A stretch of DNA of 57,983 nucleotides from IMG/VR virus record IMGVR_UViG_3300045743_000846, positions 1-57,983 of that record; one strand, given 5' to 3'. The notes below the pieces were generated by a model. That model had not been told where the DNA came from and made no database searches. It was given only the letters and a program-made list of their open reading frames with translations. A program made the translations under genes and the position numbers. Source of the stretch: a virus. Taxonomy: Duplodnaviria > Caudoviricetes. Shown here in pieces: positions 7,292 to 52,199 of this stretch. Every line of letters starts with the position of its first letter. Within the stretch, counting starts at the first letter, position 1.

Positions 7292-7486
7292 ATGAACGAA
7301 TCAATCTCCCCCATCTGGTTGCAGATGGCGTTGGCGCTCGCCATGTTGCAGCGCGATTATCAACGCGCCAGTTTGACCACCGCCCGCAGCGCCCTATGGC
7401 AGACACCATGCCATGCACGACAACATGAAGTTACAAAACCGGCCCACATGCTCGACCAGTATGACAGCGCACGGGATGATGCATGA
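7292..7486 (+). CDS. Small hypothetical protein
   Basis: 64-aa ORF whose stop overlaps the terS ATG (ATGA); weak RBS. Confidence 0.35.
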   Translation: MNESISPIWLQMALALAMLQRDYQRASLTTARSALWQTPCHARQHEVTKPAHMLDQYDSARDDA

Positions 7487-8316
7487 CCGAAGTAAAAACC
7501 CTCAACTGGCCCACCATAGAGAAGGACTATCGCGCCGGAGTCAAATCCCTGCGCTCAATTGCGGCTGAACACGGTGTAACTGAAGGTGCCATTCGCAAGC
7601 GCGCCAAGCGCGATCAGTGGGAACGCGACCTGTCGCAACGGATCAAGGCCAAGGCCGATGACCTGGTACGCAGAGCCACGGTACGCGATTTGGTACGCGC
7701 AGAAACGGCGGTTACCGAGCGCGTACTGGTGGAAGTCAATGCCCAGGTGCAAAAAGATGTGATGATGGCGCACCGTAGCGACATCGGCAAAAGCCGCAAA
7801 TTGGCCATGACCCTGATGCGCGAACTGGAGTTGCAAACCGACAATTTGCCGTTGCTGGAACAGTTTGCCGAAATCATGTTCGCGCCGAACGACAAGGGGC
7901 AGGACAAGCAAAACGAGCTGTACCGCAAACTGATTTCGCTCTCTTCCCGCGCCTCCACCCTCAAAACCATGGCCGACGCCCTAAAAACCCTGATCCTGCT
8001 GGAACGGCAGGCGTTTGGGCTGGACAATTTGCAGGAGCAAGACAATGCCGGGGTGGAATCGGTGATTGCGCGCGTGATGGAAAAACATGGCGGGGCCGAA
8101 TTCGTGGAATCGGCGCAGATGGAATTGCCGTATGAGGAAGAAGAAACGCCCGATTCGGTGCCGGGTGGCTTTGTCGGTTCGGGCGATGCTGGCCAGACTG
8201 CGCCGGTTGACGATGCGGAAGATGCGGAGTGGGATGATGATTTTGTCACTGCTGTGGCTGATGAAGTGGCCGATGCGTTGCCCAACCGATTAGCCAACCG
8301 CGCCAACGCAGGCTAA
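7483..8316 (+). CDS. terS: Terminase small subunit
   Basis: N-terminal HTH WPTIEKDYRAGVKSLRSIAAEHGVTEGAIRKRAKRDQWER; LERQAFGLD motif; directly precedes terL; acidic tail. Confidence 0.85.
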   Translation: MTEVKTLNWPTIEKDYRAGVKSLRSIAAEHGVTEGAIRKRAKRDQWERDLSQRIKAKADDLVRRATVRDLVRAETAVTERVLVEVNAQVQKDVMMAHRSDIGKSRKLAMTLMRELELQTDNLPLLEQFAEIMFAPNDKGQDKQNELYRKLISLSSRASTLKTMADALKTLILLERQAFGLDNLQEQDNAGVESVIARVMEKHGGAEFVESAQMELPYEEEETPDSVPGGFVGSGDAGQTAPVDDAEDAEWDDDFVTAVADEVADALPNRLANRANAG

Positions 8317-8319
8317 CCC

Positions 8320-9858
8320 ATGGCGATGCAAACCGAACAAAGCCGCGCCGAGGCACTGGAGCGCACCATTCACGCCTTGCGGCGCGATATGGTCTTGCAC
8401 TGTGAAACCTGCATGCACGTCCAAACCAAAGACGGCAAGCGGGTGCGATTGACGTTCAACCGTGCCCAGCGCCACATTCACCGGCTGATTGAAGAACAAA
8501 GAAAGCGCACCGGCAAGGTACGGGCGATTGTGCTAAAGGGGCGGCAACAAGGGGCTTCTACCTATATCGGTGCGCGCTTTTATTGTCGTTCCAGCATCAA
8601 TTTTGGCCAGAACGCCTTCATCGTGGCGCATGAACAAAAGGCGACCGACAATCTTTTTAGGATGGTCAAGCGCTACCACGCACTTAACCCGTTTTCGCCG
8701 TCAACCAGTGCTACCAATGCCAAGGAACTGGTGTTCGATAAGCTCGATGGCGGCTACAAGCTGGCGACAGCAGGCACCAAGGACGTTGGCCGTTCCAACA
8801 CCGCGCAATTGCTGCACGCTTCCGAATTTGCCTATTGGGACAATGCCCAATTGCATATGGCCGGTTTGGGCAATACCATTTCCGACTTGCCCGGCACGGA
8901 AATTATCATCGAATCGACCGCCAACGGCATTGGCGGCGCATTCCACAGCCTGTGGCAAGACGCCGAAGCCGGGCGCGGTGATTACATCCCGATCTTTGTG
9001 CCGTGGTTTTGGCAACCGGAATATCAGTCCCGCGTGCCAGCCGATTTTGCACTGACGCCGGACGATAGCAAGTATCAAGCCGCCTACGGCCTGAGCTTGG
9101 CCCAAATGGCATGGCGGCGCAGCAAAATTATTACCTATGGCCGGGGCTTTGAATGGCTGTTCGATCAAGAATATCCGGCTACCCCGGCCTTGGCATTCCG
9201 CAGTGCCACGCGTGACCCGCTGATCAATCCTACCACGGTGATGGCTGCCGTCAACAGCCGTTTTAAAGAGCGCTTTGGCGCGTTTGTGATTGGTTGCGAC
9301 CCGGCAGAATATGGCGATGACCGCACCGCCATCTGTTTCCGCCATGGCCGCACCGTCTTTAGAATTGAGTTTCACGAAAAAATGGGGCCGATGGAAGTGG
9401 CCGGTTTGCTGGCCCACTACTGGCGCAAGTTTAACCCTGATGCCTTGCTGGTGGACAAAATCGGCATCGGCAGCGGGATTGTCGGCAGGCTCAAGGAATT
9501 ACACATTCCGGTAATTGGGGTTAACTCTGCCGCCCGTGCCTACGACCACGAGACCTACGCCAATAAACGCGCCGAGATGTGGTACACGCTCAAGGAATGG
9601 TTAGAAGATGGCCCGAACCGCTTACCGAACAATGCCGCCCTGATTGCCGATTTGTCGGCACCGAGTTATAAATATAGCAGCAATGGCAGTCGCCTACTTG
9701 AATCCAAGGAAAGCATGAGAAAGCGCGGTATCCGTTCGCCCGATGGTGCCGATGCGCTGGCGCTCACCTTCGCCGAACCGGTGGTGCCGCGCGCCCTGCG
9801 TGAAACCCGACTTGGCGGGAGTGGCCAACATCAAGCCGCCAGCAATGCCGGGTACTAA
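8320..9858 (+). CDS. terL: Terminase large subunit
   Basis: Walker A LKGRQQGAST, Walker B LLHASEFAYW, IESTANG coupling motif, nuclease motifs GCDPAEYGDD and SPDGADALALTF. Confidence 0.95.
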   Translation: MAMQTEQSRAEALERTIHALRRDMVLHCETCMHVQTKDGKRVRLTFNRAQRHIHRLIEEQRKRTGKVRAIVLKGRQQGASTYIGARFYCRSSINFGQNAFIVAHEQKATDNLFRMVKRYHALNPFSPSTSATNAKELVFDKLDGGYKLATAGTKDVGRSNTAQLLHASEFAYWDNAQLHMAGLGNTISDLPGTEIIIESTANGIGGAFHSLWQDAEAGRGDYIPIFVPWFWQPEYQSRVPADFALTPDDSKYQAAYGLSLAQMAWRRSKIITYGRGFEWLFDQEYPATPALAFRSATRDPLINPTTVMAAVNSRFKERFGAFVIGCDPAEYGDDRTAICFRHGRTVFRIEFHEKMGPMEVAGLLAHYWRKFNPDALLVDKIGIGSGIVGRLKELHIPVIGVNSAARAYDHETYANKRAEMWYTLKEWLEDGPNRLPNNAALIADLSAPSYKYSSNGSRLLESKESMRKRGIRSPDGADALALTFAEPVVPRALRETRLGGSGQHQAASNAGY

Positions 9859-9977
9859 GCCCGCTGTCATCCGTGCGTGAACCACGCCTGCACTATTGTT
9901 TGCCCCGCTGTTGGCACTGATTTTTGCCCCGCTGTTTCCCCCCTGTTTTTGATGTCTGCACCAACCCACCCGAATCC

Positions 9978-12326
9978 ATGAATCCAACCCAAGCCGAACA
10001 AGAATACATCGCCGCCGCCACGCAAGGCATGATGGACAACAACCCGCGCGCCTACATCGCCCTTGATGCGCTCGGTAGCCTGTTGCTGGCCGAATTCCAT
10101 CAGGCGGTGCAGGAACGGCGCGACACCGAGCAGCGCTGGCTCAAGGATTTGCGCCAATACCGGGGCGTGTATGAGCCGGAAACCGAAGCCAAAATCGGCC
10201 CAAACCGTTCCAAAGCCTTTGTCCGGGCCACCCGGGTAAAAGTCAAGACAGCGGATGCACGCGTCACCGATTTACTGTTTCCGGCCAATTCCGAGCGTAA
10301 CTGGACAGCCGAACCGACGCCCGTACCCGCGATTGACCGCAGCACGCGCCGCCAGTTGATTGCCGCCTTGCGCGAAACCTTGCAGCGCCAGCCCAGCCAG
10401 TCAGAAATCGATGGCGCGATTGCCAAATGGGCCAAGGATGCGGCGCAGCGCATGACCCGCGTGATTGACGACCAACTGACCGAAGCGCGCTACAAAGACA
10501 CCGCCCGTAAAGTCTTGCATTCGGGCCACCTGTACGGCACCGGCATCTTGAAAGCGCCGCTGGTAGAGCGCAAAACCCGCACCAAATACCGGATGCAAAA
10601 AGGCGTTTGGCGCAGCAAAACCGAAGCGTATGTGGTGCCGTTCGTTGATTACGTGCCCTTGTGGCGCTTTTACCCGGACATGAGCGCCACCGAACTGGCC
10701 GAATGCCGCTATGTGTTTGAGCGGCACCTGATGACCCGTGCCCAATTGGCCAAACTGGCGAATAACCCCTCATTCGACGCCGATAAAATCCGCGCTACCA
10801 TCCTGAGCAACCCGCACGGCAGCCAAAGCCCGACCGAATACGACAGCGAAATCCGGCAAATCGGCGAGCGCAGTACCGGCAAAAACGATGGCCGCTACGA
10901 AGTACTGGAACGCTGGGGCTGGCTCGATGGCGAACTGTTGGCCGGGGCCGGGGTGGAGGTGCCAATTGAACGGATGCACGAAACCTTTTTTGCCAATTGC
11001 TGGCTGTTGCCCACTGGTGAAGTGTTAAAAATCGTACTGCAACCGATTAATGGCGTGACCTGGCCGTATCACCTGTACTACGCCGACAAAGACGAAACCA
11101 ATCTGTTTGGCGATGGCTTTGCTGCCATCATGCGCGACGATCAAACCATGATCAACGCCGGAACGCGTATGGTGCTGGACAATGCCGCCCTGACCGCCGG
11201 GCCACAGATCGAAGCCAATCTGCGTTTACTGTCTGCCACCGAGCAGGCCGACCAGATGTACCCCTTTAAAATTTGGGCCAGAAACGGAGAAGACCCCGGC
11301 ACCCCGGCGATTCGTGTATTGAATTTACCCAATGGCTTGGATACGCTGATGCCATTGATCAATATGTTCAAACTCAATGCCGATGATGTGACCGCCATTC
11401 CGCGCTACATGCAGGGAGAAAACGCCACCCAGGGCGCGGCGGGCACCGCTTCCGGCATGTCCATGTTGATGACCAATGCCAGCATCGTCATGAAGGATTT
11501 GATTACCAACTACGATGAAGGCGTCACCCGCACCTTCATTGAAGCGCTGTACCGCTGGAACATGCAATTTAACCCGGACAACCGCATCAAGGGCGATTTC
11601 GACATCAAGGCACGCGGCACTGCGTCACTGATGGCGAAAGAAGTGCGCGCCCAGCAGCTTGACCAATTCGCCGCCACCCTTGGCCCGGATGATGCACCGT
11701 ATATCAAACGCGAAGAACTGCTGCGCCAGCGCGCCGAAGCCCATGATTTGGCTTCCGTGATCAAAACCGAGCAAGAAGTCGCCATGGAGCAAAGTAGCGG
11801 TGCAGCCCAGCAGCAAGCGCAAGCCCAACAGCAGGCGCAACAGATGCAGCAGCAAGCGCAGCAACTGCAAATGGCGCAGGCACAACTTAGCTTAACCAAG
11901 ATGCAAGCCGAAGTCGATAAACTGAATGCCGAAGTTGACCGCATCCGCGCTGTGGCGCTTAAAACCAAGGTTGAAGCGGCCTATGCCGGGATGCAGGCCG
12001 GTGGCGTGGCGACTGAGCGGCCCACCATTGCCCCGGCAGGGGATGCGATTTTACTGGCGGCAGGCTGGCAGGCGGCGCTACCGGCGCAGGGGGCGGCAGG
12101 TGATGGCGCAGTAGGCAATGGAGCAGCGGCAAATGACATGGCGGGGAATGGCACAGGCGCAGCGCCAGCCCTTGCCGATAACGGCTTGCCCACCCCGCCC
12201 GCCATGCCGGATGCTGGCACACCCGCTATCACGCCAGTGCTACCGACCAGCGCACAGGCCGGGGCCAATGTCGGCGAACGGCACGGCATCGAAACTGCGC
12301 GCATTGAAGCGACCAACCCGGCATAA
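9978..12326 (+). CDS. Portal protein (podovirus type)
   Basis: ~780 aa after terL; QRWLKDLRQY, GHLYGTGILK and TASGMSMLM motifs; Gln-rich coiled-coil C-terminal region. Confidence 0.9.
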   Translation: MNPTQAEQEYIAAATQGMMDNNPRAYIALDALGSLLLAEFHQAVQERRDTEQRWLKDLRQYRGVYEPETEAKIGPNRSKAFVRATRVKVKTADARVTDLLFPANSERNWTAEPTPVPAIDRSTRRQLIAALRETLQRQPSQSEIDGAIAKWAKDAAQRMTRVIDDQLTEARYKDTARKVLHSGHLYGTGILKAPLVERKTRTKYRMQKGVWRSKTEAYVVPFVDYVPLWRFYPDMSATELAECRYVFERHLMTRAQLAKLANNPSFDADKIRATILSNPHGSQSPTEYDSEIRQIGERSTGKNDGRYEVLERWGWLDGELLAGAGVEVPIERMHETFFANCWLLPTGEVLKIVLQPINGVTWPYHLYYADKDETNLFGDGFAAIMRDDQTMINAGTRMVLDNAALTAGPQIEANLRLLSATEQADQMYPFKIWARNGEDPGTPAIRVLNLPNGLDTLMPLINMFKLNADDVTAIPRYMQGENATQGAAGTASGMSMLMTNASIVMKDLITNYDEGVTRTFIEALYRWNMQFNPDNRIKGDFDIKARGTASLMAKEVRAQQLDQFAATLGPDDAPYIKREELLRQRAEAHDLASVIKTEQEVAMEQSSGAAQQQAQAQQQAQQMQQQAQQLQMAQAQLSLTKMQAEVDKLNAEVDRIRAVALKTKVEAAYAGMQAGGVATERPTIAPAGDAILLAAGWQAALPAQGAAGDGAVGNGAAANDMAGNGTGAAPALADNGLPTPPAMPDAGTPAITPVLPTSAQAGANVGERHGIETARIEATNPA

Positions 12327-12418
12327 AGCGCGACATGCGCCGCCAAACAACGCCGCGCTTATCTACCGCTTATCTGCCGCTCATCCACCAAGTTATCACC
12401 CAACTGACAAGGATAATC

Positions 12419-12628
12419 ATGACCACAGCCTGTTATGGCGACATTTCGCCGCGCACCATGGCTTTTGTAGAAAAACCGGGGATTCAGAAACACACCATCC
12501 AACACATGGTGTTACAACGGCTTGAAGTGCGGGATACGCAACTTAAAATGATTCAAATGCAAGCTGAAATCGATAGGCTGAAGGCAGAAGTCGAACGCCG
12601 CCGCATCGAACCAACCACGGCAGCATAA
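12419..12628 (+). CDS. 69-aa chimeric mini-protein: capsid N-terminus fused to portal C-terminal segments
   Basis: MTTACYGDISPRTMAFVEK matches the capsid start MATTSYGDISPRTAAYAEK; QMQAEIDRLKAEVERRR matches portal KMQAEVDKLNAEVDRIR; RIEPTTAA* matches portal end RIEATNPA*; RBS region ctgacaagga shared with the capsid gene. Confidence 0.7.
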   Translation: MTTACYGDISPRTMAFVEKPGIQKHTIQHMVLQRLEVRDTQLKMIQMQAEIDRLKAEVERRRIEPTTAA

Positions 12629-12636
12629 GACGGCCC

Positions 12637-12885
12637 ATGCTCACCACACCCGAACAACGCCGCGTCAACTTGCAGGCGACCAGCACCGATTTTGTGGCCT
12701 TCCGCAACAGTGCGCAAACTCGTGAACTGGTGGCCCTGTTGGATGCCATGATCGATCAATACCACGCCGATTTGGCCAGCGTCAAGCCGGAACGGTTGCT
12801 GTATGTGCAGGGCGCACTGGCCCAAGTGATGGCGCTACGTGCGCTGGCCTGTAGCGACAGTTTGCACTTGTCGCCGCTGATTTGA
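12637..12885 (+). CDS. Small head-module protein
   Basis: 82 aa between portal and scaffold, helical, LLYVQGALAQV motif typical of this position. Confidence 0.7.
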   Translation: MLTTPEQRRVNLQATSTDFVAFRNSAQTRELVALLDAMIDQYHADLASVKPERLLYVQGALAQVMALRALACSDSLHLSPLI

Positions 12886-12929
12886 GGCACGGCAAGGCAC
12901 GCCACCCGCTTTTATTGTTTTATCCACCG

Positions 12930-12952
12930 ACCCGCCCATGGCGGGTTTTTTT
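12930..12952 (+). terminator. Intrinsic terminator-like hairpin before the scaffold gene
   Basis: acccgcc-cat-ggcgggt followed by a T run. Confidence 0.8.
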
Positions 12953-12975
12953 ATTGTTTGACCCATGAGGAACCC

Positions 12976-13902
12976 ATGCGAAATGAAGAATCCGACCTGC
13001 CCGACCATGACGCCGAATTTGCTGCCGAATTCAACCGGGACGAGCCAAGCGGCACGCCGCCGTCAGCCGGGGCAACGAGCGCGCCGCCAGCGGCTGATAC
13101 CGGCAAAAAATCGAAGACCGCCAAAAAGCCGCGCCAGAAGGTAGGCGATAGCCATATGGCCGAGGCTGGACAAATGGCCCATGAACCGATGCAGGCGGGC
13201 AATGCCGCAAAAATGGCGATGCAGCACGCCGATGAAGCCAAGCGCCTGATGCAAATGGAAGCAAGCTTGCAGGCACGCGCGCGCGAGCTGGATAGCCGGG
13301 AAGCAGCGATGAAGCGGCACGACGGCAAAGCCGGGATGGACAAATCCGGGGCGGGCGGCATGCCAGATGACCATTCCACCGACCCGGCAAGCGACCAAGC
13401 CGACGACCCGATGGCCATCCTTTCCGCTGAATTTGGGGCCGATTTCGGCGATCTGCTGACTCGCGCCATTATCCAAATCTGCCAGCAACAAATCGGCCAC
13501 GGCATGAACAGCCTTGACGCCAAGGTTGAGAGTTTGATTGCCCACCTGAGCCAGGAGCGCCAGCAAAACCACTTGCAAACCATTGCCGCCAGCCACAAGG
13601 ATTTTATGGAAATCGTTGATTCCCCGGCCTTTATGGAGTGGAAAAGCGAACAGGACGCCAGCGGCCAAGCCGATATCGCGCGCGTGATGGAACAAGGCAG
13701 CGCGCAAGAAATCATCGCCATGCTGACCCGGTTTAAGCAGGATCAAGCCGATGACGACGATGATGATGGAAATGCCACCGCTCACGCCAGCGCGCACGAC
13801 CCGGCCATGGCGGCTGCCGAAGGCGTGCGCTCCTCTGGTATCCGTCTGCCCAAAGCCCCCAGTGCGGCAGATGATTTTGCGGCTGCCTGGAACGAAGCCT
13901 GA
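12976..13902 (+). CDS. Capsid scaffolding protein
   Basis: Acidic/helical; HKDFMEIVDSPAFMEW motif and terminal DDFAAAWNEA; GAGGA RBS; precedes capsid. Confidence 0.8.
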   Translation: MRNEESDLPDHDAEFAAEFNRDEPSGTPPSAGATSAPPAADTGKKSKTAKKPRQKVGDSHMAEAGQMAHEPMQAGNAAKMAMQHADEAKRLMQMEASLQARARELDSREAAMKRHDGKAGMDKSGAGGMPDDHSTDPASDQADDPMAILSAEFGADFGDLLTRAIIQICQQQIGHGMNSLDAKVESLIAHLSQERQQNHLQTIAASHKDFMEIVDSPAFMEWKSEQDASGQADIARVMEQGSAQEIIAMLTRFKQDQADDDDDDGNATAHASAHDPAMAAAEGVRSSGIRLPKAPSAADDFAAAWNEA

Positions 13903-14056
13903 ACCAACATCGACCCGGATTGGGCAGTAAGCCGGGCCACGCCGAGGCACCAAGCAACGCCCCAAGTAACGCTCCACCGCAAGCAGCAGCCAGCGCCGTA
14001 CCCGGCTGTTTTCCCGCTTGTTTTTTCACTTATCCCCCACCTGACAAGGACACTCT

Positions 14057-15058
14057 ATGGCCACAACCAGCTATGGCGATATTTCGCCGCGTACCGCCGC
14101 CTACGCAGAAAAGGAATTACTCAAACGCGCCATCCCGTTCATGGTCTTGGAACGCTTTGGCCAAAGCAAGCAATTGCCGAGCAACAAAACCAAAACCGTG
14201 GTATTTCGCCGTTATAACGCACTCGACACCACCCCGACCGCCTTAGTGGAAGGCGTTACCCCCGGTTCGCAAAGCATGACTTCCACCGATGTCACTTGCG
14301 TGCTGACCCAATACGGTTCCCGCATCACGATTACCGACGTGATCATGGATACCCATGAAGATGAGGTATTGAACGAAGCGATTGAAATGTTGGGTGAACA
14401 AGCGCCGCAAGTGATCGAACGCATGCGCTTTGGCGTATTGCGTGCAGGCACCAATGTGGTGTACGGCAACGGGGCCAGCCGCTCTGCCGTGAATACCCCG
14501 ATTACGCTGGCAGCACAGCGGCGCGTGGTCAAAGCCTTAAAACGGCAAAACGCCGAGCAAATCACCAAGGTGATTAAATCTACCCCGGCTTGGGGCACCG
14601 AAGCGGTGGCCAAAAGCTATATTGGCCTGATCCACCCGGACATGGAACCCGATGTGCGCAATATGATTGGGGCCGATGGCAAATCGGTGTTTGTCCCGGT
14701 GGAAAAATACGGTTCGATGGTGCCCTATGAAAACGAAATCGGCAAGGTGGATGATGTGCGCTATCTGTCATCCACCATTTTTACGCCGTTTTTGGATGCA
14801 GGCGGGGCCAAGGGCTTGATGACTTCCACGGGCGGCACCAATGCCGATGTGTATTCGGCACTGTTCATCGGGGCCAATGCCTATGGCGTGGTGGCATTAA
14901 AGGGCATGTTTGCCATGACGCCGTTGGTGGTCAACCCGAAACCGTCCGACTCCGACCCACTGGCCCAGCGTGGCCATGTCGGCTGGAAAGCGTTTCAGGG
15001 CGCGGTGATTCTCAACGATGCATGGATGTGCCGGGGCGAATTTGCCGTGACGGCCTAA
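14057..15058 (+). CDS. Major capsid protein, N4-gp56 family
   Basis: YGDISPRT, FRRY, EGVTP, EIGKVDDVR and DPLAQRGHVGWK motifs. Confidence 0.93.
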   Translation: MATTSYGDISPRTAAYAEKELLKRAIPFMVLERFGQSKQLPSNKTKTVVFRRYNALDTTPTALVEGVTPGSQSMTSTDVTCVLTQYGSRITITDVIMDTHEDEVLNEAIEMLGEQAPQVIERMRFGVLRAGTNVVYGNGASRSAVNTPITLAAQRRVVKALKRQNAEQITKVIKSTPAWGTEAVAKSYIGLIHPDMEPDVRNMIGADGKSVFVPVEKYGSMVPYENEIGKVDDVRYLSSTIFTPFLDAGGAKGLMTSTGGTNADVYSALFIGANAYGVVALKGMFAMTPLVVNPKPSDSDPLAQRGHVGWKAFQGAVILNDAWMCRGEFAVTA

Positions 15059-15126
15059 GCCTGACGTTTTGATTCACCCATTCCACGTTTCTCCATTCCC
15101 ATTCATTTTTATCCCCAAGGAACCCT

Positions 15127-17076: not shown

Positions 17077-17505
17077 ATGCCCGGTTCCCTGTCCGATTAT
17101 CTCGAACAAAACATTATCAACGCCACCTTGCGCGGTGTGGCCTTGCCGCTACCGACCAATGTGTTTCTGGCCCTGTTCACTGCCAGCCCAACCGATGCCA
17201 ATATTACGGCCAATGAAGTCACGCTGGCAGCGTGGCCCGCCTACGTTCGGCAAAATGCAGCCGCAGGCGGGCCGATTGCCAACGGCTGGAGCGCGCCCGT
17301 GAACGGGGTTTCCAACAATGCCTTGCTGCTGACCTTTCCCGCCAATAACGGTGCTGCTGCTGTGACCGTGACCCATATCGGCCTGTATGACGCGGCGACG
17401 GGTGGCAATTTGCTGTATCACAACGTGTTGGCCATCAGCAAAACCATGCAACCGACTGACGTACTGACCTTTCCGGCTAACACCATCAGCATTACGCTGG
17501 ATTAA
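17077..17505 (+). CDS. Small virion structural (tail-associated) protein
   Basis: SDYLEQNIINATLRG..LALFTASPTD..THIGLYDAATGGNLLY family pattern. Confidence 0.75.
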   Translation: MPGSLSDYLEQNIINATLRGVALPLPTNVFLALFTASPTDANITANEVTLAAWPAYVRQNAAAGGPIANGWSAPVNGVSNNALLLTFPANNGAAAVTVTHIGLYDAATGGNLLYHNVLAISKTMQPTDVLTFPANTISITLD

Positions 17506-27553: not shown

Positions 27554-28444
27554 TTATAACCCATAATATTTTGAGATAGCCCCAGAGAGAATTCCCCCTG
27601 CAACCGCCACACCAATTTCCCACCCTCCCGTTGCCGCTTTCGTGATCATTTTCCCTATCCAATTACTTACCTGTGGGCCAAAATGCTTTGAAGATACTGG
27701 AGGCGGGTCAGCCCGCAAAGCGATTTCTAGCGACTGGATATCATTCTTTTCTACCCCCTTCTCGACAAGAAAATTAGCGAGGGACTGTAAATCATTTGGG
27801 GACACAGTGATGGAATTCGTTTGGGAAATTGTTCCACCACTTACATCACCTAAAACACCTTGGAAATTTTCGATTGTAATTGAATTGTGTGTCATTGCCA
27901 ATTTCCTTTCTTTTTCAGAAAAAGTAATTCCGGTTCCAATAATCCCCTGTCGCTCCAGAGAAAGTGCCCAGTCCAATATTTTCGTTCTAACTGTTTGTAT
28001 AATTCCATAAAACTGATTCACGGGAATCACCAGCACTGGAGCAAAGGCGGGAGGAGTCTGAAAATCCATTAATAATTTCTCCTTCTCTGGCGGAAAAGAT
28101 GACCAGATAGTCCCATTATGCTTATCGGAAACTATTAAGCTATTTATTTCGTCACAGGAACTTGTTACCTCAAGCGTCTGGACCAATTCGGCGACATCTG
28201 GGGGTAAAAAAAATCGCACTAGCCCATGGTAAGGATTTTTAACATTGAGATTCCCAAATAGTAACCTGTAAGGTGGCACCATGTTGTGATGCCGATAACC
28301 ATTTAATTCAAGAATAACCCAGTTTCGAAAATCTTCTAGATTAAGCTTGGTTGCAACCATTAATGCTTTTCGTAACACTTCAGATATCTTAACGCCATCA
28401 TCTGAAGCAAGCTCTTGCAGTTGCAAAACTATTGACTGATTCAT
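27554..28444 (-). CDS. AbiTii-domain protein (candidate abortive infection)
   Basis: IVLQLQ..ISEVLRKALMVATKLNLEDFRNWVILELNGY..VPPYR is the AbiTii N-terminal pattern; C-terminal FGPQVSNWIGKM..ISKYYGL. Confidence 0.85.
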   Translation of the reverse strand: MNQSIVLQLQELASDDGVKISEVLRKALMVATKLNLEDFRNWVILELNGYRHHNMVPPYRLLFGNLNVKNPYHGLVRFFLPPDVAELVQTLEVTSSCDEINSLIVSDKHNGTIWSSFPPEKEKLLMDFQTPPAFAPVLVIPVNQFYGIIQTVRTKILDWALSLERQGIIGTGITFSEKERKLAMTHNSITIENFQGVLGDVSGGTISQTNSITVSPNDLQSLANFLVEKGVEKNDIQSLEIALRADPPPVSSKHFGPQVSNWIGKMITKAATGGWEIGVAVAGGILSGAISKYYGL

Positions 28445-34731: not shown

Positions 34732-37700
34732 ATGAATTTAGCGCAAGCACGTTACAAATTGCCGGAATTGGCCGGGTTGGATGACCAATCGGCCCTGGAA
34801 GTGATTCAACAAAACTATTACCCGATGCTGGACAAGCACGACTTGGCCAAACAATTGGGCGTTACCCTGCCCGAGCCACCCGTTAAACAAGCCGGAGTAC
34901 TGCGCACGGCGGGCGATGTCGGCATCAAACTGGCGCAAGGTGTGGTGGATTTGGGCAGTTCTGCTGTTGGCCTCGGTAGTTTGGCTACCGGTGGTTTAGT
35001 CGGCAAGGGCATGCGCGCCGCCGGTTATGACCCGAAGGCCGCCAATGAGATATTGGGCAGTTACCTGTCCGACAGCCAAAAAGCCGCCGATGACAAGGTG
35101 CAGCATGCCGATGGCTTTGTCGATACCCTTGCTGCCTCGCTGCAAAATCCGCGTTCGATACTGGGCAGCATCGCCGAATCGGCCCCCGGCATGCTGGCGG
35201 GCATGGGCGTAAGCAATGCGGTGGCGCGTGGCATTGCCGCCAAAGCCGCCTTGGCCACGGGTGAAGGGGCCGCCGCCAGTGCCAGCGCGCGCGCAGCCGG
35301 GCAAACTGCCAGCCAAGCCGGACGTGCCGCACTGGCAACCGATCTTGGTAGCCAAGCCGCCAGCCGTGCAGTGGATGCTGCCGGGAACAAGCTGTTGGCC
35401 TTGGGTGCGGCCACCGAAGGCGCACAGGCTGCCGGGCAGATTGCCGATGATGCGCAAGCCGCTGGCCGTGCCTATGCCGATTACGCTTTGCCTGCCATCG
35501 CTGCCGGTACATTGACCGGTTCCATTGGCTATGGTGCCGGGCGCTTGTTGGGCGATGCCGCCACCCACATTGCCACCGGGGCCAGATCGACCGGGGTGCG
35601 CGGTAGCCTTGCGGCACGGGTAGGCAAGGAATTATTCAGTGAAGGCGTGTTGGAAGAATTGCCGCAATCGGCGCAAGAACAAGCCTTTACCAATTTGGCG
35701 CAGGGTGAACCGGATGTAATGCACGGCGTGGCCAATGCCGCCGCCACCGGCTTGGTAACCGGTGGCGTAATGGGGGCAGGCATGGGTGCCTTGCAAGGCA
35801 GACATCACCCGGCCAACCCAAGCACCAGCAACCCGGCGCAGCGCAGCAATCCGCCCGTGGTATTGCCGGACAGTGGCCCACTCTCACAGGCGGCCAATGC
35901 CGGGCAACAGGCAACGGCAACCATTCAACCCGCCGCCAGTAGCGCCCCCGCGAAAAATACCGCCGATGCGGGCGACCTGCCGTTAAACAGCGCACCGCCG
36001 TTGTCGCTGGACGAAATCGACGCCCGCATGGCTCAACTGGTAGCGCTTGGCCATGGCCGTTTGGCCAGCCGGGTACGCGATGAACAGGGTAATCTGCAAA
36101 CCGTCCCGGCCATCAAAGGCCGCCGCCTGACGCAGGAAGAAACGGCAGAATACCAAGCCCTGAACCAAGCGCGCCAGCAACGCACCGCCATTCCGCCCGA
36201 GCAACAAGCCGACTACCAAGCCCTGTTGGCACAAGAGCAAGCCGAACAGCAACAAAAAGCCGCCGCCACGCTGGCGCGGCAAGCACAACAGGCGCAACAA
36301 GCACAGCAGGCCCAGCAAGAGGCAGAACTGGCGCAACTGCTGGCCGAGGAACAAGCCGAGCGGCAGGCGCAGGCACAGCAAGCGCAACAAGCACGGGCCG
36401 CACAGGAACGGCAGCAACTTGATATTACCAATGCCATTGTGGCGCATGAACGGCAAACCCGCAGCGAGGCCGAGCGCGCCGCCTTGCGCCAGCAAGTGAT
36501 TAATGATCATTCAATTGCCCCGCAGCAAAAAGTCGCTGCCCTGCAAAAGCTGTATCAATTATCCGGCTACGCCGACCCCAGCCTGTCGGCGCAGGATCGA
36601 CATGAAATCGAGTTGGCCACCGTACCGGTTCGGGCGCTGCCGAATGAATTGATTGACCCGGTACCGGAGCGCAGGCCCGCCACCCATAACAAAACCGTGC
36701 AGCCGAATTTGCAGGCAGTCGATAACGCGATTGCGCAAGGCATGCGCTTGCGCACTGCCAAGGGCAATCTGTTGCACAAAAAGGGTTCGAGTAAAATCTT
36801 TAGGCTGAATGGCGCGCAAAAGGCGTATTACCTGGAACAGATGGCGCGCTTGGCGCAAGGGCAAGCGCAGGAGCCAGCACAGGCAGAACAGGCAGAACAG
36901 GCAGAACAGGTGGCCAATGAACCCGCCCGCACGCCAGCACTGGAAGCCAATGCCGAGCCAGCCGCCGCCCGGGTGGAAAGTCCCGCGCCATTGCTGCCTG
37001 CCGACACCGCCAATGCGGAACCGGCCAGCGTGGCAAACGCACCCGCTACGCCTGCCTTGCCGGATGCGGTGCCAGCGCCCCAAGCTGCACCGGCACCGGC
37101 CAAGGAACTGACTACCCGGCAAGCACTGAACCGCAAAACCGTCAAGGACATGAGCGATGATGAGTTGCGGCAAGCGAAACAGGTGTTAGCCGATAGCCCG
37201 CGTGCGCCAAAAATCGACAAGGAAATGGCCCGCCGGGGCTTGCACGCTGAACCGGCCCCGGCAAGCAGCACGCCTGCCGAAGCGGCACAGCCGCCGATAC
37301 CACAAGGATTTGTTCGGGCGGTGGATGGGCAGGTACAGGCCAATCGGCCCGCTACCGAACCGGTTACCGCGCCAGCGAGCGGATCAAGTGATACCGACCG
37401 CACCAGTCAACCGGCCAAGTCGGCATCCTACTTTGCTGATGCGGCAGTTGAACCCAACCCGTTAACCCAACCCGTGAATGAAAGGGGGGACAAGGGAATA
37501 GTCACTCACCCAATACCCGGTATCGCGCCGGAACCCACGAACACTGCCGACCTGATACAAGGGGCGGCGAACCCGCAGGCTTCAGCACCACAAGCTGGCA
37601 CCCATTCACAAGAGACGATTGGGCGAACGATAGTGTCGCCAGATGACTATCCGCTGGCAGAGTCCGAACGAAGTTATTCCGGCATCAGCCTCCATCCGAA

Positions 37701-40700
37701 TCAGCGTGCGCAGGGGGATCGGGATGAATTTGTCAAAGTGGTGCAGAACACCTATGACGCTGCGAAAAAGTTGGTGATGACAGAAGCGCAACAAGCGGCG
37801 CTTGATGCGGCGATTTCCCGTTTCAAAAATGAGTATCTGCTCGAAACGCGCAAGGTAATTCGAGTGCGTTCGGGTACGTACAGTGCGTTTGTGGCCGGGC
37901 GCTCAAAAATAAACACAAAACAAGCCGATGCGCGCAACCGGGCGTATGACAAGGCACTGGTGGATTTCTTCGGGTGGCAGAAAAATGCAGCGCCACGGGT
38001 GGCGCAGGCGGTGCTTGATGCCCGCACGCCGGAACAATTGGCAGAAGTGGCGCGGGAAAAAGCGGCAAAGGCAGCGGCGCGGCAGGAAAAAAATGATGCG
38101 TTTTTGCGCCGGTTGTTGAATTTTAAGCCGGGTGCAGATACGGTCACACTCGGTGAGGCGAAGCTGACGCGTATAACCTATGACCGGACTGGTCTGCCCA
38201 ATGCGCTGATACTGGAAGAACCGGGTTTGATCAAGGGTGTAACCGATAAGTTCATGATAGTGCCTACCTTGTATGCCAGCAAGGATGCATTGCGGGTAGC
38301 GGTGGAACGGGTGCGCAACGCTGTGCAAGCCGAACCAAGCCTTGAAACGAGCCAAGTCCAGGATTACAACGCTGTGGCGGGGAATGGGGCGGCACATGTC
38401 GAAGCCGGGCGCGTAGAACCGGCAACACCGGCAGTAATTGGGGAATCCATTGCCAAGTCTGCCGCCAATACGCCAATGAACCTGAAACAGGCCAAGGCCG
38501 ATCTGTTGGCGAAAATTGACGAGGAACTTGCCAAGGCACCTGAAAGCGCACGCACTGCCGAACATCGGCTTGCTACCAAATTGGCTGAAGCTGATCTGGC
38601 CGCTGCCCAAGAAAAATACCGGTCTAACCGAACCAACGCCAACGAAAAAGCGGTGTCCGAACTGATGAAAACCGTGGAAGTGCTGCGTACCATGGGCAAC
38701 CGGGTAACCTTCGATGTACCGGGCGATGGTAAATTCACGGTGCTATTTGATAAGCCGCACTTGCAGAAATTCCGCGATAAGGTTGCGGCAAACCCCGGCT
38801 TCAATGATAAAACCCGCCCAGTCAGCAAACCAAAGGCGCTCCCCTTTACCCCGGAAACCACCCTTTTGGATTTGTTGAAAGATGGCGAATTGCAAGCCGC
38901 TTACCAGTTTGCCAAGCAGATTGGAAAACCATTCCGCTTTACCACTGACCGCACCAGCAATGTGCCAAATCTGTATATTAATGCCGCCCCCGTGGATTTG
39001 GTGCCCGGTGTTGCGACCTGGGTTGGCAAGCAAACCAAGCGTGAGCCGAATGGCGGCATCACGCCCACGGCAAGTTGGTATGTGATTGAAAATAGCACAG
39101 GTTCATCGCTGGGTACGGATGGCACGGCACAAGGTGCTATCGCGGCTGCGAAAAAAAGGGTAGCCAACAAAGGCGTTGATCAATTTTTTCAGGCATTGGC
39201 AGAGGCTCCAAAAGTCGAGGAAAGCACGCTGGAACAGCAATGGCTACAGTACCATCATGCGGAAAGCATAGACGATTCGCACACACCGCCGCCTGAAGCC
39301 CCGACACAACAGGAGCCAGCGCCACAGCATGACGCCATTGTCACGCCAGTCATTGCTACACCAACCGATACCCAACAACCCAATCCAGCCATCGAAACGG
39401 CGGCGATTCCAACCAGTGAACCGGAACCGGCAAAGGAAACCGCCCAGTCTGAAGTTGAAGAGCCATTGCGGATTCCAGAAGGATACAAGCCGGTTGGCGA
39501 ATACTACCGATATGACATTCCCACAGAAGGCTATGCCCCGTTCAAAGAAGGGGATCGAGTCAGGATGCTCGAAAGTGGCTGGCGCGGCACCGTCGATTCC
39601 CTGTTTGGGGAAGGGCCAATTTTTTCCAGCGGCATCATTAAATACGACAATGGCACCACGGTAAGGCAGTTTTGGCACCAAGTTGAAGCGGCACCAGAAC
39701 AGGCTACCGTGCAGCCAAGCGCACCAGACAGCGCACAAACCAACGTACCAACCAGCACGCAAGCAGCGGCCAGCCCCGTGAACAGCCTGGCCGCGATTGA
39801 ACAGGTATTCGAGCGGGCCAGCCATGGCCAATTGCCACTGCAAGAGTTTCATGCGGCTTATGCCAGCTTTAACGAACACGAAGCGGCAATCACGGCAGAA
39901 CTCTCTGCCATGAAAAAGGATGAATTGCTGCGCTATGGTGGCCCGGCATTTACTTATCAGAACAGGGATGACAAAAAGGCAGAAGTCGTCAAGGATTTAT
40001 ATAGCACCTTGCGTGAACAATTTGCCTTTGCGCGGGAAAGAACGCTTTCCTACACGCTTTCCGGCAAGAATGAAAGTTGGGAAACCGCGCGCAAGAATGC
40101 AATCGACCAAGCCGTGGCAGACACGACACAGGCCGATCTTGAGCGCTATGCCGCCGACCGGCAAGCGCTGCGCGACAAGCAGGCTGCCAAGCTGGAAGGC
40201 ATGCAAGACCCGAAAACGCTGGACGATTTTATTGGGCTGATGCGGGAAAAGGTGCGTGATGGGATGTCGTTCAAGGCGGCGCGCTTGTCATTGCCCTTGG
40301 CCCAGCGCGCCATGTTCGACAGGCTGACCGCCGAAAAAAGCCAGGCAGAACGGGGCGCGAACAAGGTGCCCGTGCTGCGGGCACCAAATGCCCCGGTTGG
40401 CAGCACCGATATCATCCAGACCAAACACACCAAACACGGCCATGATTTATGGCAATTTAATCTGGAGCAACGGGTGTCACCAGACCAATTCAAGGCATTG
40501 GTGGTGCAAGCCCGGCGCTTGGGTGGGGATTATTCCAGCTATCGCGGCCATGGTGCCATTCCGGGCTGGCAATTTCGCAGCGAGGAATCGGCCAAAGCGT
40601 TCAAGGCGCTGGTGGCAGGCGATACCGGGGCGGCAGAAACCGTTATTCAGGCGCGGCGCGATGCCTTCGCCGATGACCGGACGCAAAGTGCAACCGAGCG

Positions 40701-43700
40701 CCTGAGCGAAATGGCCGATGCGCTGGAACAGTCGGCCACGGCATCGCTCAACCAAGATCGAAAAGCCAATACGGCGCGTCGGGCCGAGATGGCCAGCCGG
40801 GCCGATTCTGCCGCGCGCCATGCTTTGGCGTTGGCCCAGACCATGAAAAACATGGCTGCGGCACTGACCGATGGCAGTGCGCCGTTTTTGCGCCATGTTC
40901 GGCAAAAAACACAGGTGGCGTTTCTGAACAATACGGTTGAGCGGGCATTGCTGGCGCAGTGGCAGGCCAGCGGTAAAGCCTATTTTGAAATTGAGAACCT
41001 GAAAGGCAGCCCGGCCACGGTTGAGGCAGCGGATTATGCCGAATGGCCGACTTATTCTGCATACCGCTCGGACTTGGCCCAGCTTGGCAGGCGCTTGCTT
41101 GAAGTGGATGGCACGCGCATGCTCGGTAAGCAGATTCTGAAGGAAGCCGATGATGTTACTGACGCCTATATGGCATTTGCCAAGAAAAATCTTCATCTGG
41201 TGCGGGGGTTTTCTTCGCAAAGCGGTGGGCCTTTGGTCACAAGCGCCAAGGCTGAAGCCGAAGCGATTATCTACCGTAGCGGGTTCCGGGGCCGGGCAAT
41301 TCCGTTTAGCCCGAAGGCGCGGGAATGGACGGTCATTTATAGCCCGGGCGAAGCGATTGAGCGCGGAATCTGGCCAGGTGACGGCGACAAGCGCATTTCA
41401 CTGGCTGACCAGTTTGGGCGGGAACTGGTGGCCAAGATTGGCCGGGCCAATAATCGGGGAGCCAAGGTAACGGTGCCGTGGCAGTTTGAAAATGCGTATG
41501 AGCGGCAAGCCATGCTGGCGCGCATGGGTATCGAAACCCCGGCAGAATTTCGCGCCACCTTACGCGAGTTCATCAATTTGCAGGGCCAACAACAGGTGGC
41601 CGACCCAATCCGGGAGTTGGAACGCAAAATGGTGGGCCGCACCAACGATGGACTGGACTTTTTTCCGACCGGTGAAGCGGCTGTCGATGAAATGATTGAT
41701 GTGGCCGGGATCGAGCCGGGTATGCGGGTGCTGGAACCGGAGGCGGGCTGGGGCCATATCGCGGAACAGATTCGCCAAGCGGGTGTTGAACCGGATGTGG
41801 TGGAATTGTCGCATGACCGGCGGCAATTGCTGGAAGCCAAGGGTTTTACGGTGGTTGGCCACGATTTTATGGACATTTCGCCCGAGACGCGTGGGCGCTA
41901 TGACCGGATTTTGATGAACCCGCCGTTTTCTGACCGGCGCGATGCCCAGCATGTCATGCATGCTTTTACCTTGCTGGCACCACGCGGGCGACTGGTGGCG
42001 ATCATGGGCGAAGGGGTGTTTTTCGGGCAGGATGCCAAGGCCAAGGCGTTTCGGGAATGGCTGGAATCAGTGGGGGGCACCAGTGAAAAACTGCCGCCGA
42101 ATTCGTTCATGGATGCCAACTTGCCGGTAAATACCAGCGTGAACGCGCGCATGGTGGTGATTGATGCGCCGGAAACCCTGGCTGATGGTGTTGCCGCGCA
42201 GCCTGCGGTACAGCCTGCCGCAACCGAAGCGACCACGGCACCGGCACCAAAGCTATCACAGCGTACTACCGCAGCCGATGCATTGGGCCATACCCCGGCA
42301 TCATTGGCCGCTGCCATGAATGGGGCACTGGCCCGGTATGGTGATCACTTTTTTACCGATTTGCTGGCCACAGGCCGGGTGCAGGTTATCGACCAAGCCG
42401 CCGCGAATGCGATTTTGCATTTTGCCGGGGTTGAATCTGGCGGCAGCGCAACACCTGTTGCGTTTTATAATCCGGCTGACCAAATCACCTATTTTATTGC
42501 CGATGCCATCCCAAGCAATACCAGTGATGCCGCACTGTACGGGCTGGTGTTGCATGAAATTGCCAATCATGCCTTGCAAATGGGGCGCACCGAACCGGAG
42601 TTTGGTCAATTGTTGCGCCAGTTTGCCTTGATGCAAGGGGGCAATGCGCAAGTGGCAGCCGCATTTGCCCGTGCGCGCGAGCTGGGTACGGCACCGGCCC
42701 GACTGGCCGAAGAAGCGCTGGGTTATTATTTGGAGGCGAACCCCACACTGGGGTTTGCCCAAAAGGTATTGGCATGGTGGCGTACCCTATTGCGCAAGCT
42801 GGGGCAAGCCTTGCCAGCGCTGAACCGGTTGCGCTGGTTCCGGGCAGTGCAAGCGCTGTCGGCCCCGGATTTGGTACTGGCGGCGCAGCAAGCATTGCGG
42901 CAAGCACCGTATGTCTTGCCCCTTAATCAGGCTTCGCTGCGTGAGCCTGAGCGGGCACCTGCCATGAGCCAAAGCACACCCAACACCGCACCCAACACCA
43001 CATCAAACAGCCAACTGGTGGCCATCTGGCAACGTATCGGGCAAGCGCAAGACGGGTATCAATATCCGGTGTCATCAGCCAGGGATTTGGCCAGCGTGAT
43101 GCAAAAGGTATTGCCTGATAGCAAAGTGGTACGACTGGACAGGGATGCGCCCAAGGCGCGCAGCCTTGCCAGCTTGCAATGGAAAATAACGATGCCGGAT
43201 GGAAAGCACGCCTATGTGTATGAATTTGGCCGCGATCTGCAAATCGATGCATCGCAACTGGCATCGGGCAGCTCGCGCGGTTCTGCGCTGTATGCCGCGC
43301 TGGCCAATTATGCGTTTAATACCGGCAAGGTGCTGGAGGGGGACAGTGCGGGCCTGTCGCCGGTTGGCCAGATGCGCCGTTTGGAGAACATGATTGCCAG
43401 TGCCATCAAATTCGGCAGCACCGACCACATGCGGCCCCATCCGGCACAAAAGCAGCCTAATTCGGGATTGACCCAGCAAATTGGCTTGCATGGCATTCGC
43501 TGGGCAACCGGTGATTATCAACACAACCTTGCGCAAATGCTCAGGGCTTCGTATGATTATGTATCTTTCCTTGTTCCTGAGATTGGCCATGTCAACTTTA
43601 CCGAGTACGGAGATTTCACCGGAGCAGATGGTGATTTATTCACAGATGATAATTTCCGGCACTTGGCAGAGCGTGCCACCGGCATACTTCACCAGCGCTT

Positions 43701-47267: not shown

Positions 47268-47984
47268 CTATTTTACTGGCTTGCCACGCTTGGCCAAGGC
47301 CACGCGCAGAATTTGGCTGATATCGGGGCGGCCCATGCTCTTGGCCAAACCAAGCGTATCCCATTTGCTGGGGTCAAGCCCGGCATCGAGCGCATGTTGC
47401 AATTTGGCAGTGTTGCCGTGTTCGATGACGGTTTGCAATAAGTCGGCATCATGAAAACCGGTGACGCTGCTTTGTTGCAGCAGAAAATCAAACACCGGCA
47501 AGGCAACATCGGCTTGCGCGGCACGGGTGAGCAAAATTTCGGACAGGGTTAATTCGGGCGGGTTGGCGCGGCGGCATGGCAGGCGCAGCAAACCGGCATC
47601 GTCCAATACGGTCAGCTTTGCCAGCACTTCGGTAGGCAGGCCGGACAGTTGCGCCAATAAGAAGGTTTTGGCTTGATCCTGATGCGGGCCATTGCTGGGC
47701 CATTGTTGCCGCAATTGTGGCGCGAGCCGCGCGCGGATCAGGGAAGCAATTGCGCCCTTGGGATTGGCCCACTGGCTGCCGGGCTGCTGCAATAGATCGT
47801 CCAGCCGTGTCCAGTCGAGCCGTTCTTGTCCGATGGGGGGTAACAGTGGTAGCGCGGGCATCGGGCTTGGGCCGGGGTGCGGTGGTTGGTTTTGATGGGC
47901 GTGGCTGATGGCCGGAGCAAGCCGCACGCCCATGGCCAGCAAAAGGGTAGTCAGACAGATAAGAAGTGGCAGGGAACGGCGCAT
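47268..47984 (-). CDS. Exported protein with ankyrin-like C-terminus
   Basis: Signal peptide MRRSLPLLICLTTLLLAMG; LLQTVIEHGNTAKLQHALDAGLDP..LGLAKSMGRPDISQIL. Confidence 0.6.
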   Translation of the reverse strand: MRRSLPLLICLTTLLLAMGVRLAPAISHAHQNQPPHPGPSPMPALPLLPPIGQERLDWTRLDDLLQQPGSQWANPKGAIASLIRARLAPQLRQQWPSNGPHQDQAKTFLLAQLSGLPTEVLAKLTVLDDAGLLRLPCRRANPPELTLSEILLTRAAQADVALPVFDFLLQQSSVTGFHDADLLQTVIEHGNTAKLQHALDAGLDPSKWDTLGLAKSMGRPDISQILRVALAKRGKPVK

Positions 47985-48722: not shown

Positions 48723-48844
48723 CGTTATCTCCTTAGAATGGGTGATCTTTATCGGTTTTGCGCAAGGTTTGGGCTAACCGGTTCATAGTGGGTTGTCTTC
48801 AAAAAAATGGGGAAGGTTGGCCGATTGAGGCACCGCTGCCCAAT

Positions 48845-52038: not shown

Positions 52039-52199
52039 GAGTTGGCCGGGCGGTGATGTCAATCGGGTTCAAAAAAATGGGGGTGACGACGTGGACAGTT
52101 TGGCACGGCCAGTTTGGCACGGCACACCAAGCAGGCCATTCTGTTCGCCATCCCCCCATCAAACCTTGTCGTAGAGGAGACTAAGGATCGGTTGCCGGG

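Follow-up and report, generated by a model that had tools for sequence, protein, structure and literature searches.

Chimeric new genes that arise by partial tandem duplication and fusion are best documented in Drosophila and in plants. Phage genomes also carry morons, stretches of foreign DNA that lie between conserved genes and often have their own promoter and terminator, and the Gol peptide, a piece of the T4 major capsid protein gp23, activates the Lit protease. Here, we describe an open reading frame (ORF) of 69 amino acids (aa), hereafter the mini-ORF, at positions 12419–12628 on the plus strand of the window, by which we mean the whole 57,983-nucleotide (nt) stretch that was analysed, positions 1 to 57,983 of the IMG/VR provirus record IMGVR_UViG_3300045743_000846 of a GP4-like podophage (Caudoviricetes). 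The mini-ORF is located between the portal gene and X82, an 82-aa ORF that is the conserved gene after the portal in relatives. It was, with high probability, derived from the resident capsid and portal genes by duplication and deletions. As to why it persists, we tentatively favour the reading, to which we give slightly less than an even chance, that a young lineage-specific ORF has been kept open as a translational relay to X82 and that its peptide is weakly constrained.

The locus shares several features with the chimeric genes of Drosophila and plants: parental pieces joined in frame, parents left intact, a regulatory region taken from one of the parents, and rapid divergence. It differs from them in its setting within a phage head-assembly operon, in its size of only 69 codons, and in its composition, as two pieces come from one parent and one from the other, with two later deletions. 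With two intact parents, a flanking repeat and a resident source, it has, on sequence grounds, the structure of a chimeric gene formed by partial tandem duplication. Like phage morons and ORFan inserts, it is a small extra ORF in a slot between conserved late genes with a GC content below that of its neighbours; unlike morons, it is built from the phage's own genes, and in a consensus scan of the insert, promoter and terminator signals did not exceed background. Keyword searches of open-access text found neither a phage capsid–portal chimera nor a separately encoded capsid-fragment decoy.

The mini-ORF starts with an ATG at 12419, preceded at a distance of 5 nt by the Shine-Dalgarno (SD) sequence AAGGA (12409–12413), and ends with a TAA at 12626–12628. 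The first-pass annotation of this region had described a chimera of the capsid N terminus and two portal segments, and all three similarities are present, that to the portal terminus weakly. The first parental segment, at 14030–14154 (plus strand), contains the 5′ untranslated region (UTR) and the first 33 codons of the capsid gene. By blastn, 12393–12519 aligns with it at 72.9% identity over 129 columns (E 5.7e-14), and at the protein level residues 1–34 of the mini-ORF match capsid residues 1–33 with a score of 84 that was reached by none of 2000 shuffles; the assignment of the first ∼35 residues to the capsid start is thereby borne out. The copied codons occupy 12419–12520 (plus strand) and number 34, one more than in the parent; the motif YGDISPRT is intact, and codons 14–34 are heavily changed.

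The similarity extends upstream of the start codon, also as had been proposed. The segment 12393–12418 (plus strand) is a copy of the capsid 5′ UTR, including the SD sequence, with 85% identity over 26 nt to 14030–14055. A 21-nt pattern from this element is found exactly only at 12393 and 14030, where the two copies share 19 of 21 positions (0.03 matches expected by chance). A third site, with three mismatches, is located at 47823–47843 on the minus strand, inside an ORF and with no start codon after it, and was dismissed as chance. Capsid-based searches provided 88 related loci (80 from IMG/VR and 8 from genomes; capsid identity 48–83%), each with a single capsid hit, and the UTR element is absent from all of them. 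RNA folding of the initiation regions gave z scores of −0.81 for the mini-ORF and −2.09 for the capsid gene, with a GGCGA/UCGCC hairpin over the GDISP codons common to both, from which we draw no conclusion.

The ∼22 residues that had been assigned to the portal coiled coil are likewise confirmed. In blastn, 12557–12604 matches 11901–11948 at 79.2% over 48 nt (E 2.3e-6), and the ungapped pairing of the full copy (12539–12604, plus strand) with its parental segment (11883–11948, plus strand; portal residues 654–675) has 73% identity across 66 nt and ranks first among the direct repeats of the 5.2-kb region. The corresponding protein score of 67 was reached by 0 of 2000 shuffles. Between the capsid and portal copies are linker codons 35–40 (LEVRDT; 12521–12538, plus strand), which faintly resemble the portal sequence immediately before the coiled-coil match. 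The self-comparison that had been suggested as a check recovered the same capsid and portal pairs as direct repeats. For the last eight residues, said to copy the portal terminus, the outcome is mixed. The protein match is weak alone, its score being reached by 93 of 2000 shuffles against the whole portal and by 10 of 2000 against the last 30 aa, and the coding 24-mer of this copy, at 17/24, ties with an unrelated site. In an ungapped comparison with the whole window on both strands, the 36-mer 12605–12640 (seven codons, TAA, 8 nt and ATGC) has its best non-self match exactly at 12303 (24/36; next-best site, 22/36). All joins are in frame, in agreement with the first-pass annotation. Both parents are intact: the plus-strand genes for the capsid (14057–15058, 333 aa; Pfam Phage_capsid_4, PF25209, and PHROG major head protein) and the portal (9924–12326, 800 aa; Pfam SU10_portal) are full length with family matches.

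The 36-mer carries the last seven portal codons, TAA, the 8-nt spacer and the X82 ATG, copied (plus strand) from 12303–12338 (plus strand), and the ATG in the copy is the working start of X82 (12637–12885, plus strand), 8 nt past the stop of the mini-ORF. The geometry of TAA, 8 nt and ATG is the same at 12324–12337 and 12626–12639. The 12-mer AACAACGCCGCG occurs in the window only at 12346 and 12653 (0.06 expected; two or more matches in 0 of 100 shuffles), 11 nt past the ATG at 12335 and 16 nt past the ATG at 12637, respectively. Together with the alignment, it delimits a remnant of the X82 start at 12335–12358 (plus strand), which consists of the ATG plus ∼24 nt and has a 5-nt shift relative to X82. 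The strongly diverged stretch that follows, 12359–12392 (plus strand), gives a weak global alignment only, to ∼14000–14029, and is probably a copy of the scaffold–capsid intergenic region upstream of the capsid UTR. The order across the insert is thus portal end, X82 start copy, capsid upstream region, UTR and codons 1–34 copies, portal helix copy, portal end copy, and X82.

An insert of ∼300 nt is therefore bounded by a direct repeat of the portal end, TAA, 8-nt spacer and X82 start, and this flanking repeat is the footprint of a tandem duplication, from the portal 3′ region to the capsid 5′ region, followed by two deletions. The first-pass annotation had argued that a simple deletion cannot create the capsid-then-portal order and that tandem duplication plus deletions could; the order does call for a duplication, and the repeat expected from such a history was found, X82 remnant included. 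In the proposed sequence of events, an interval of ∼2.3 kb from ∼11865 to ∼14160, from the coiled-coil region of the portal through the first ∼35 capsid codons, would have been duplicated in tandem. A deletion in the first copy would have begun at X82 codon ∼9 and reached ∼100 nt beyond the scaffold stop, taking out most of X82, the scaffold gene and part of the intergenic region, and another in the second copy would have removed the ∼345 nt that separate the coiled coil of the portal from its terminus. The product would be the ∼300 nt now found between the portal stop and X82, equipped with a ribosome-binding site copied from the capsid gene and ending in a copy of the portal's junction of stop, 8 nt and ATG ahead of X82. 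We infer this sequence of events; a single template-switching event with multiple jumps would give the same product.

The source of the pieces can be traced by comparison with the relatives. The capsid-like segment has a local alignment score of 53 against the resident region and of no more than 31 in each of the 88 related loci, and the helix-like segment reaches 30 with the resident portal and no more than 20 elsewhere among them; the end-like segment does not discriminate between sources (19 for the resident gene, 18 for relatives). The helix copy carries the EVDKL-type sequence of the resident portal, to which it is closest among all relatives, and the ending of the mini-ORF, RIE followed by five residues and a stop, corresponds to the unusual five-residue extension of the resident portal past the family ending GIETxRIE. 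Because both main segments score best against the resident genes and the UTR element is unique to this capsid gene, the source is the lineage's own genes. A variant of this origin, in which illegitimate recombination or template switching built the chimera in a close relative that co-infected the host, or copied it from there, would make the high synonymous divergence from the resident parents easier to accommodate if the donor had already diverged: the proportion of synonymous differences (pS) is 0.48–0.62 per segment, as large as that against the nearest sampled relative. We consider this variant improbable, as the UTR element (19/21) is common only to the resident capsid gene, both main segments and the portal-specific features match the resident genes, the flanking repeat is the expected trace of a tandem duplication, and scans of viral, genome and metagenome contigs revealed no donor. 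It concerns the origin alone and is compatible with all three functional readings considered below.

The position of the mini-ORF relative to X82 suggests why its frame has been maintained. In all 29 distinct X82 contexts among the relatives, an upstream ORF of at least 90 open codons, either the portal gene or an inserted gene, ends −3 to +11 nt from the X82 start, and a motif scan with a regular expression found no SD sequence before X82 in the window and in 14 of the 29 relatives. In the window, 8 nt separate the portal stop from the ATG at 12335, and another 8 nt separate the mini-ORF stop from X82. Because X82 always starts at the stop of an upstream ORF and lacks an SD sequence of its own, the frame across the insert may be kept open as a relay. 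The terminase-to-X82 module would then consist of genes linked by translational coupling, with X82 as the last, and any insert between the portal and X82 would itself have to be an ORF from which ribosomes reach the X82 start. The mini-ORF could be translated from the capsid-derived strong SD sequence (69 aa) or from the ATG at 12335, the copied X82 start 8 nt past the portal stop, which is in frame and yields a 97-aa form (12335–12628, plus strand). This longer form is the version found in a public protein collection, where it makes up a JGI/IMG-derived singleton cluster. Translating ribosomes would cross the insert and restart at X82, the frame being preserved mainly for the benefit of X82, and the peptide, one long helix bearing a flexible tail from the capsid N terminus, would be a weakly constrained by-product.

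Selection for X82 expression would account for the in-frame joins (including that to the ATG at 12335), a +4/−1 indel pair in the DNA alignment that restores the frame within 7 nt, the preserved initiation region, and the long survival of the insert. As in textbook termination–reinitiation coupling, stop and start codons are a few nt apart and the downstream gene has no SD motif; the present case differs in that openness would be the only selected property of the upstream partner, and in that dependence is deduced from geometry. We infer from these arrangements that X82 depends on coupling, and also that the peptide itself has no role. Expression as a portal fusion by frameshifting was rejected as a candidate: the frame of the mini-ORF is open for 106 codons ahead of its stop, only from 12308, and inspection by eye showed no slippery heptamer in 12300–12326. 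In a promoter scan, a site at 12522–12549 was one of three found where 4.7 were expected, and it was dismissed.

The same slot is occupied in other members of the group. The portal stop and the X82 start overlap in L003, the closest relative, with no insert between them, and in other relatives the portal–X82 slot holds unrelated ORFs of 60–237 aa that are chained by overlapping stop and start codons (inserts at L006:3900-4725, L007:1416-2748, L008:2889-3550 and L015:4394-4696). By this pattern, the slot is an apparent insertion hot spot that always stays ORF-filled. No second copy of the capsid or portal pieces is present in any of the 88 related loci. A tblastn search with the mini-ORF matched 65 of the 88, each time at the locus's own capsid start and over mini-ORF residues 1–35, and the portal-like part was never covered.

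Wider searches gave the same result. A word-indexed search of 5.8 billion proteins of 37–121 aa, a HMMER search of 1.84 billion representatives, and peptide-pattern scans of viral, genome and metagenome contigs each returned only the window's own ORF; the best score in an ESM Atlas search was 0.80, below a useful level, and blastn of 11800–14200 against phage GenBank records gave no match. A pattern for the lineage-specific C terminus of the portal had no hits in three contig collections, and the 90% identity clusters of the mini-ORF, X82 and the capsid are all singletons among ∼15 billion proteins. These singletons and the missing portal termini indicate that the lineage itself is unsampled, so that the absence of the mini-ORF elsewhere says nothing about its conservation. 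The sole sign of any close relative of the phage comes from a second freshwater metagenome run, X2, with ∼97% identical pieces (11962–12213 and 14246–14393) at a depth of ∼2 and nothing usable over 12336–12628. In run X1, probably the source sample, a single contig with a depth of 38 covers 9900–15100 without any difference from the window. Among the related loci, L090, from a metagenome-assembled genome labelled Nitrososphaerota archaeon, and L080, from IMG/VR, agree in both the identity and the coordinates of their capsid and portal hits; the presence of a bacterial-type podophage contig in an archaeal assembly is probably a binning artefact.

The divergence of the mini-ORF from its parents bears on all readings of its function. 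Nei–Gojobori estimates of the ratio of nonsynonymous to synonymous rates (dN/dS) are 0.26 for the capsid part, 0.34 for the helix and 0.21 for the end, and pooled over 62 codons, pS is 0.55 and the proportion of nonsynonymous differences (pN) is 0.23. The synonymous divergence between the capsid gene and its counterpart in L003 is 0.52, similar to the value for the mini-ORF, which indicates that the copy is not recent. The first-pass annotation had characterized the changes in the conserved stretches as synonymous or conservative. Numerically this stands, given the dN/dS values; as a sign of constraint it does not, since the pattern is indistinguishable from neutral decay. In a simulation in which the mini-ORF changes freely except for stop codons and the parents accept only synonymous changes, the observed substitution counts were not unusual (best joint P 0.10, at d = 0.3 per site), and dN/dS was therefore rejected as proof of selection.

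The divergence is unevenly distributed. By a hand count on the alignment, identity to the parent is ∼82% over the UTR and codons 1–13 and ∼58% over codons 14–34, where pS and pN rise to 0.78 and 0.32, respectively. The YGDISPRT motif is kept at all eight residues, and the two differences among its 24 nt (22 identical) are synonymous. Between positions 14 and 36, the mini-ORF has lost 8 of 17 positions that are invariant or near-invariant in the capsid family. The GC content at third codon positions (GC3) is 0.51, as compared with 0.62–0.71 in the other tabulated genes, eight of which are head-module neighbours, and ranks at the 5.6th percentile when 69-codon windows are taken from real genes; total GC is also below that of the neighbouring genes. 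The low GC3 points to weak selection on codon use. Both it and the substitution pattern, which calls for no constraint other than the avoidance of stops, fit a relay with a weakly constrained peptide, as does the open frame, which is unlikely under free decay even before the in-frame joins are counted.

These data allow an alternative in which the insert is a neutral scar, a leftover of duplication and deletion that is open by chance, is needed neither for X82 nor as a protein, and is destined to be lost. The neutral substitution pattern, the low GC3 and GC, the heavy divergence of codons 14–34 and the absence of the insert from all 88 relatives are in line with such a remnant. An open frame is also no rarity under free decay: the simulated frame of 68 codons remained open in 0.17–0.23 of runs at d = 0.3–0.4, and in 0.08–0.12 when the start was also kept, and the feature was ascertained as an ORF. 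An open frame, a kept start and two in-frame internal joins (a 1/9 chance) together have a probability of roughly 0.01–0.03 under free decay, to which are added the preserved SD sequence and the in-frame upstream join to the ATG at 12335. Moreover, the copy has reached a pS of ∼0.55 with conservation that is patchy and not uniform, and phage genomes usually shed useless DNA that is flanked by direct repeats. On this evidence a neutral scar is possible but unlikely, and we rank the relay to X82 first, ahead of both the scar and the functional peptide discussed below.

Several observations weigh against the relay. The dependence of X82 rests on geometry, and tight packing of stops and starts is common in phage late operons and is no proof of coupling; the 8-nt gaps of the window are also the widest seen (range in relatives, −3 to +11). 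The argument from the open frame is biased by ascertainment, because the feature was noticed as an ORF. The dN/dS of 0.21–0.34 lies under the ∼0.5 expected for free evolution of the mini-ORF, a difference that is not significant, and the uneven conservation, with YGDISPRT kept, exceeds what a pure relay needs.

This last point raises the possibility that the peptide itself is selected. AlphaFold, run with a single sequence, predicts a disordered tail at residues 1–19 followed by one helix at residues 20–63, with a predicted local distance difference test score (pLDDT) above 90 over residues ∼30–60. The predicted helix runs across the capsid–portal join, and heptad spacing can be followed by eye from V37 to V58. 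In the capsid model, helices at residues 11–24 and 27–34 are broken at P27. The helix breakers of the capsid are replaced in the mini-ORF (P27 to Q and G35 to E), which is suggestive of changes that would extend the helix. The capsid model (mean pLDDT 59.8, N-terminal arm below 50) was too poor to be used for locating a docking site of the arm, and a complex prediction for the capsid, with a 35-row alignment, and the mini-ORF product, made without controls, gave no support for contact and is no argument in either direction.

The peptide was also compared with known protein families. The only Pfam match is to DUF1192 (PF06698), at 17.1 bits (E 0.0063) against a gathering cut-off of 25.5, so that the peptide is not a member; the score reflects a generic likeness to coiled coils. 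No match was obtained to the HK97-fold capsid family (PF25209, Phage_capsid_4) or its PHROG counterpart, only the 34-aa N-terminal arm having been copied, or to the portal families (PF23899, SU10_portal; PF16510, P22_portal), and the copied portal segment (residues 654–675) lies past the SU10_portal match (residues 239–651). The peptide belongs to no PHROG family and matched none of the defence or anti-defence families of PADLOC-DB.

The first ∼36 residues of the capsid family (YGDISPRTAAYAEKELLKR..P..V.EKFGQ; 14057–14100 in the window and the 88 related loci) are its most conserved stretch, even at 48–54% overall identity. This conservation points to an important docking role for the N-terminal arm. 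In phage GP4, a distant relative, the capsid N-terminal arm makes inter-subunit and inter-capsomer contacts and supports a cement protein (PMC9698820). By analogy, a free mimic of the arm could in principle disturb assembly.

A functional micro-protein would accordingly be envisaged as a selected peptide in which the YGDISPRT tail and the portal-derived helix dock where the capsid N-terminal arm or the portal helix docks; it could tune or poison head assembly (its own or a competitor's), serve as procapsid cargo, or act as bait for sensors of capsid or portal. The pattern of change is what such a peptide might be expected to show, as YGDISPRT is intact with synonymous changes only while the following residues (AAYAEKELLKR), near-invariant in the 88 capsids, have changed, as the helix breakers are replaced in a single helix predicted to cross the join, and as BLOSUM62 rates 7 of the 9 replacements in the copied coiled coil as conservative (our own count on the alignment). 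The low dN/dS, the strong SD sequence and start, and survival to a pS similar to that of the capsid gene against L003 may be read in the same sense. Neutral change, however, is not rejected, GC3 is low, nearly half of the capsid residues that are invariant or almost so from position 14 to 36 have been lost, and the sequence and family searches described above returned neither a homologue nor a family. The late-operon position is a further difficulty, since a role in exclusion by the prophage would call for a promoter, for which there is no outstanding candidate. We regard a selected micro-protein as doubtful. A more specific version, a molecular mimic made from the phage's own parts, in which the YGDISPRT motif is carried on a portal-derived coiled-coil stalk and acts at the procapsid (regulating assembly, poisoning competing relatives, or entering the head as cargo by way of the capsid's docking motif) or as sensor bait, is in our estimate quite unlikely.

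The first-pass annotation had offered three roles for the peptide, a decoy for sensors such as CapRel and Avs, an assembly modulator, and a superinfection inhibitor, none of which found support: there is no match to a defence or anti-defence family, and neutrality is not rejected. We know of no sensor for this capsid family. Like the Gol peptide and the triggers of CapRelSJ46 and Avs, the mini-ORF product is a major-capsid fragment that would exist as a separate entity, in principle visible to host sensors. It differs in that the known cases are parts of the full protein and not separately encoded chimeras. The known sensed regions are internal or comprise the whole fold and do not involve the N-terminal arm: Avs sensors are reported to bind core folds (PMC13581612), and CapRelSJ46 escape mutations to map to capsid residue L114 (PMC9712102). 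The sensed surfaces are thus core folds or residue 114, and as both are missing from the mini-ORF product, they argue against a decoy and, more broadly, against sensor bait as the role of a micro-protein.

The mini-ORF is an unusual and instructive singleton, not a demonstrated new system, and its origin is secure. It provides a clean, datable snapshot of a new phage ORF made from the phage's own structural genes, in which parents, breakpoints, flanking repeat and ribosome-binding site can all be read. In coupled late operons, inserts may stay open since the downstream gene needs ribosomes; if the relay reading is correct, this would give 'free' peptides a general path into the reach of selection. 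Were the peptide active instead, in assembly modulation, as a packaging signal or as sensor bait, it would represent a new kind of phage accessory protein, and as a mimic it would be the first structural-protein mimic made by intragenomic duplication.

The mini-ORF is preceded upstream by genes for the small terminase (7483–8316) and the large terminase (8320–9858), followed by the portal gene. Downstream of X82, a strong terminator-like hairpin at 12929–12947 (plus strand; eight pairs, six of them G–C, then TTTTTATT), identified by a consensus scan only, lies between X82 and a gene for an acidic scaffold-like protein of 314 aa (12958–13902). The hairpin suggests a possible end of a unit comprising terminase, portal, mini-ORF and X82, separate from scaffold and capsid. 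A Pfam domain for Gp80, the fibre I protein of podophage GP4, is present at 17077–17505 (plus strand), and the C-terminal region of the portal is the only part that matches any solved structure (8jov, E 6e-5); the two matches place the phage near the Ralstonia GP4-like podophages. Among minus-strand cargo genes, 27554–28444 encodes an AbiTii abortive-infection protein (Pfam 4.5e-39, PADLOC 2e-40). A 4024-aa ORF at 34732–46806 (plus strand), whose sole Pfam match is to LPD37 (large polyvalent protein associated domain 37; residues 2765–3018), probably encodes a giant virion or ejected protein. On the minus strand at 48045–52062, two adjoining N6_Mtase ORFs (556 and 516 aa) stand beside a 225-aa homologue of CobA/CobO/BtuR-type ATP:corrinoid adenosyltransferases, an unusual cargo for a phage.

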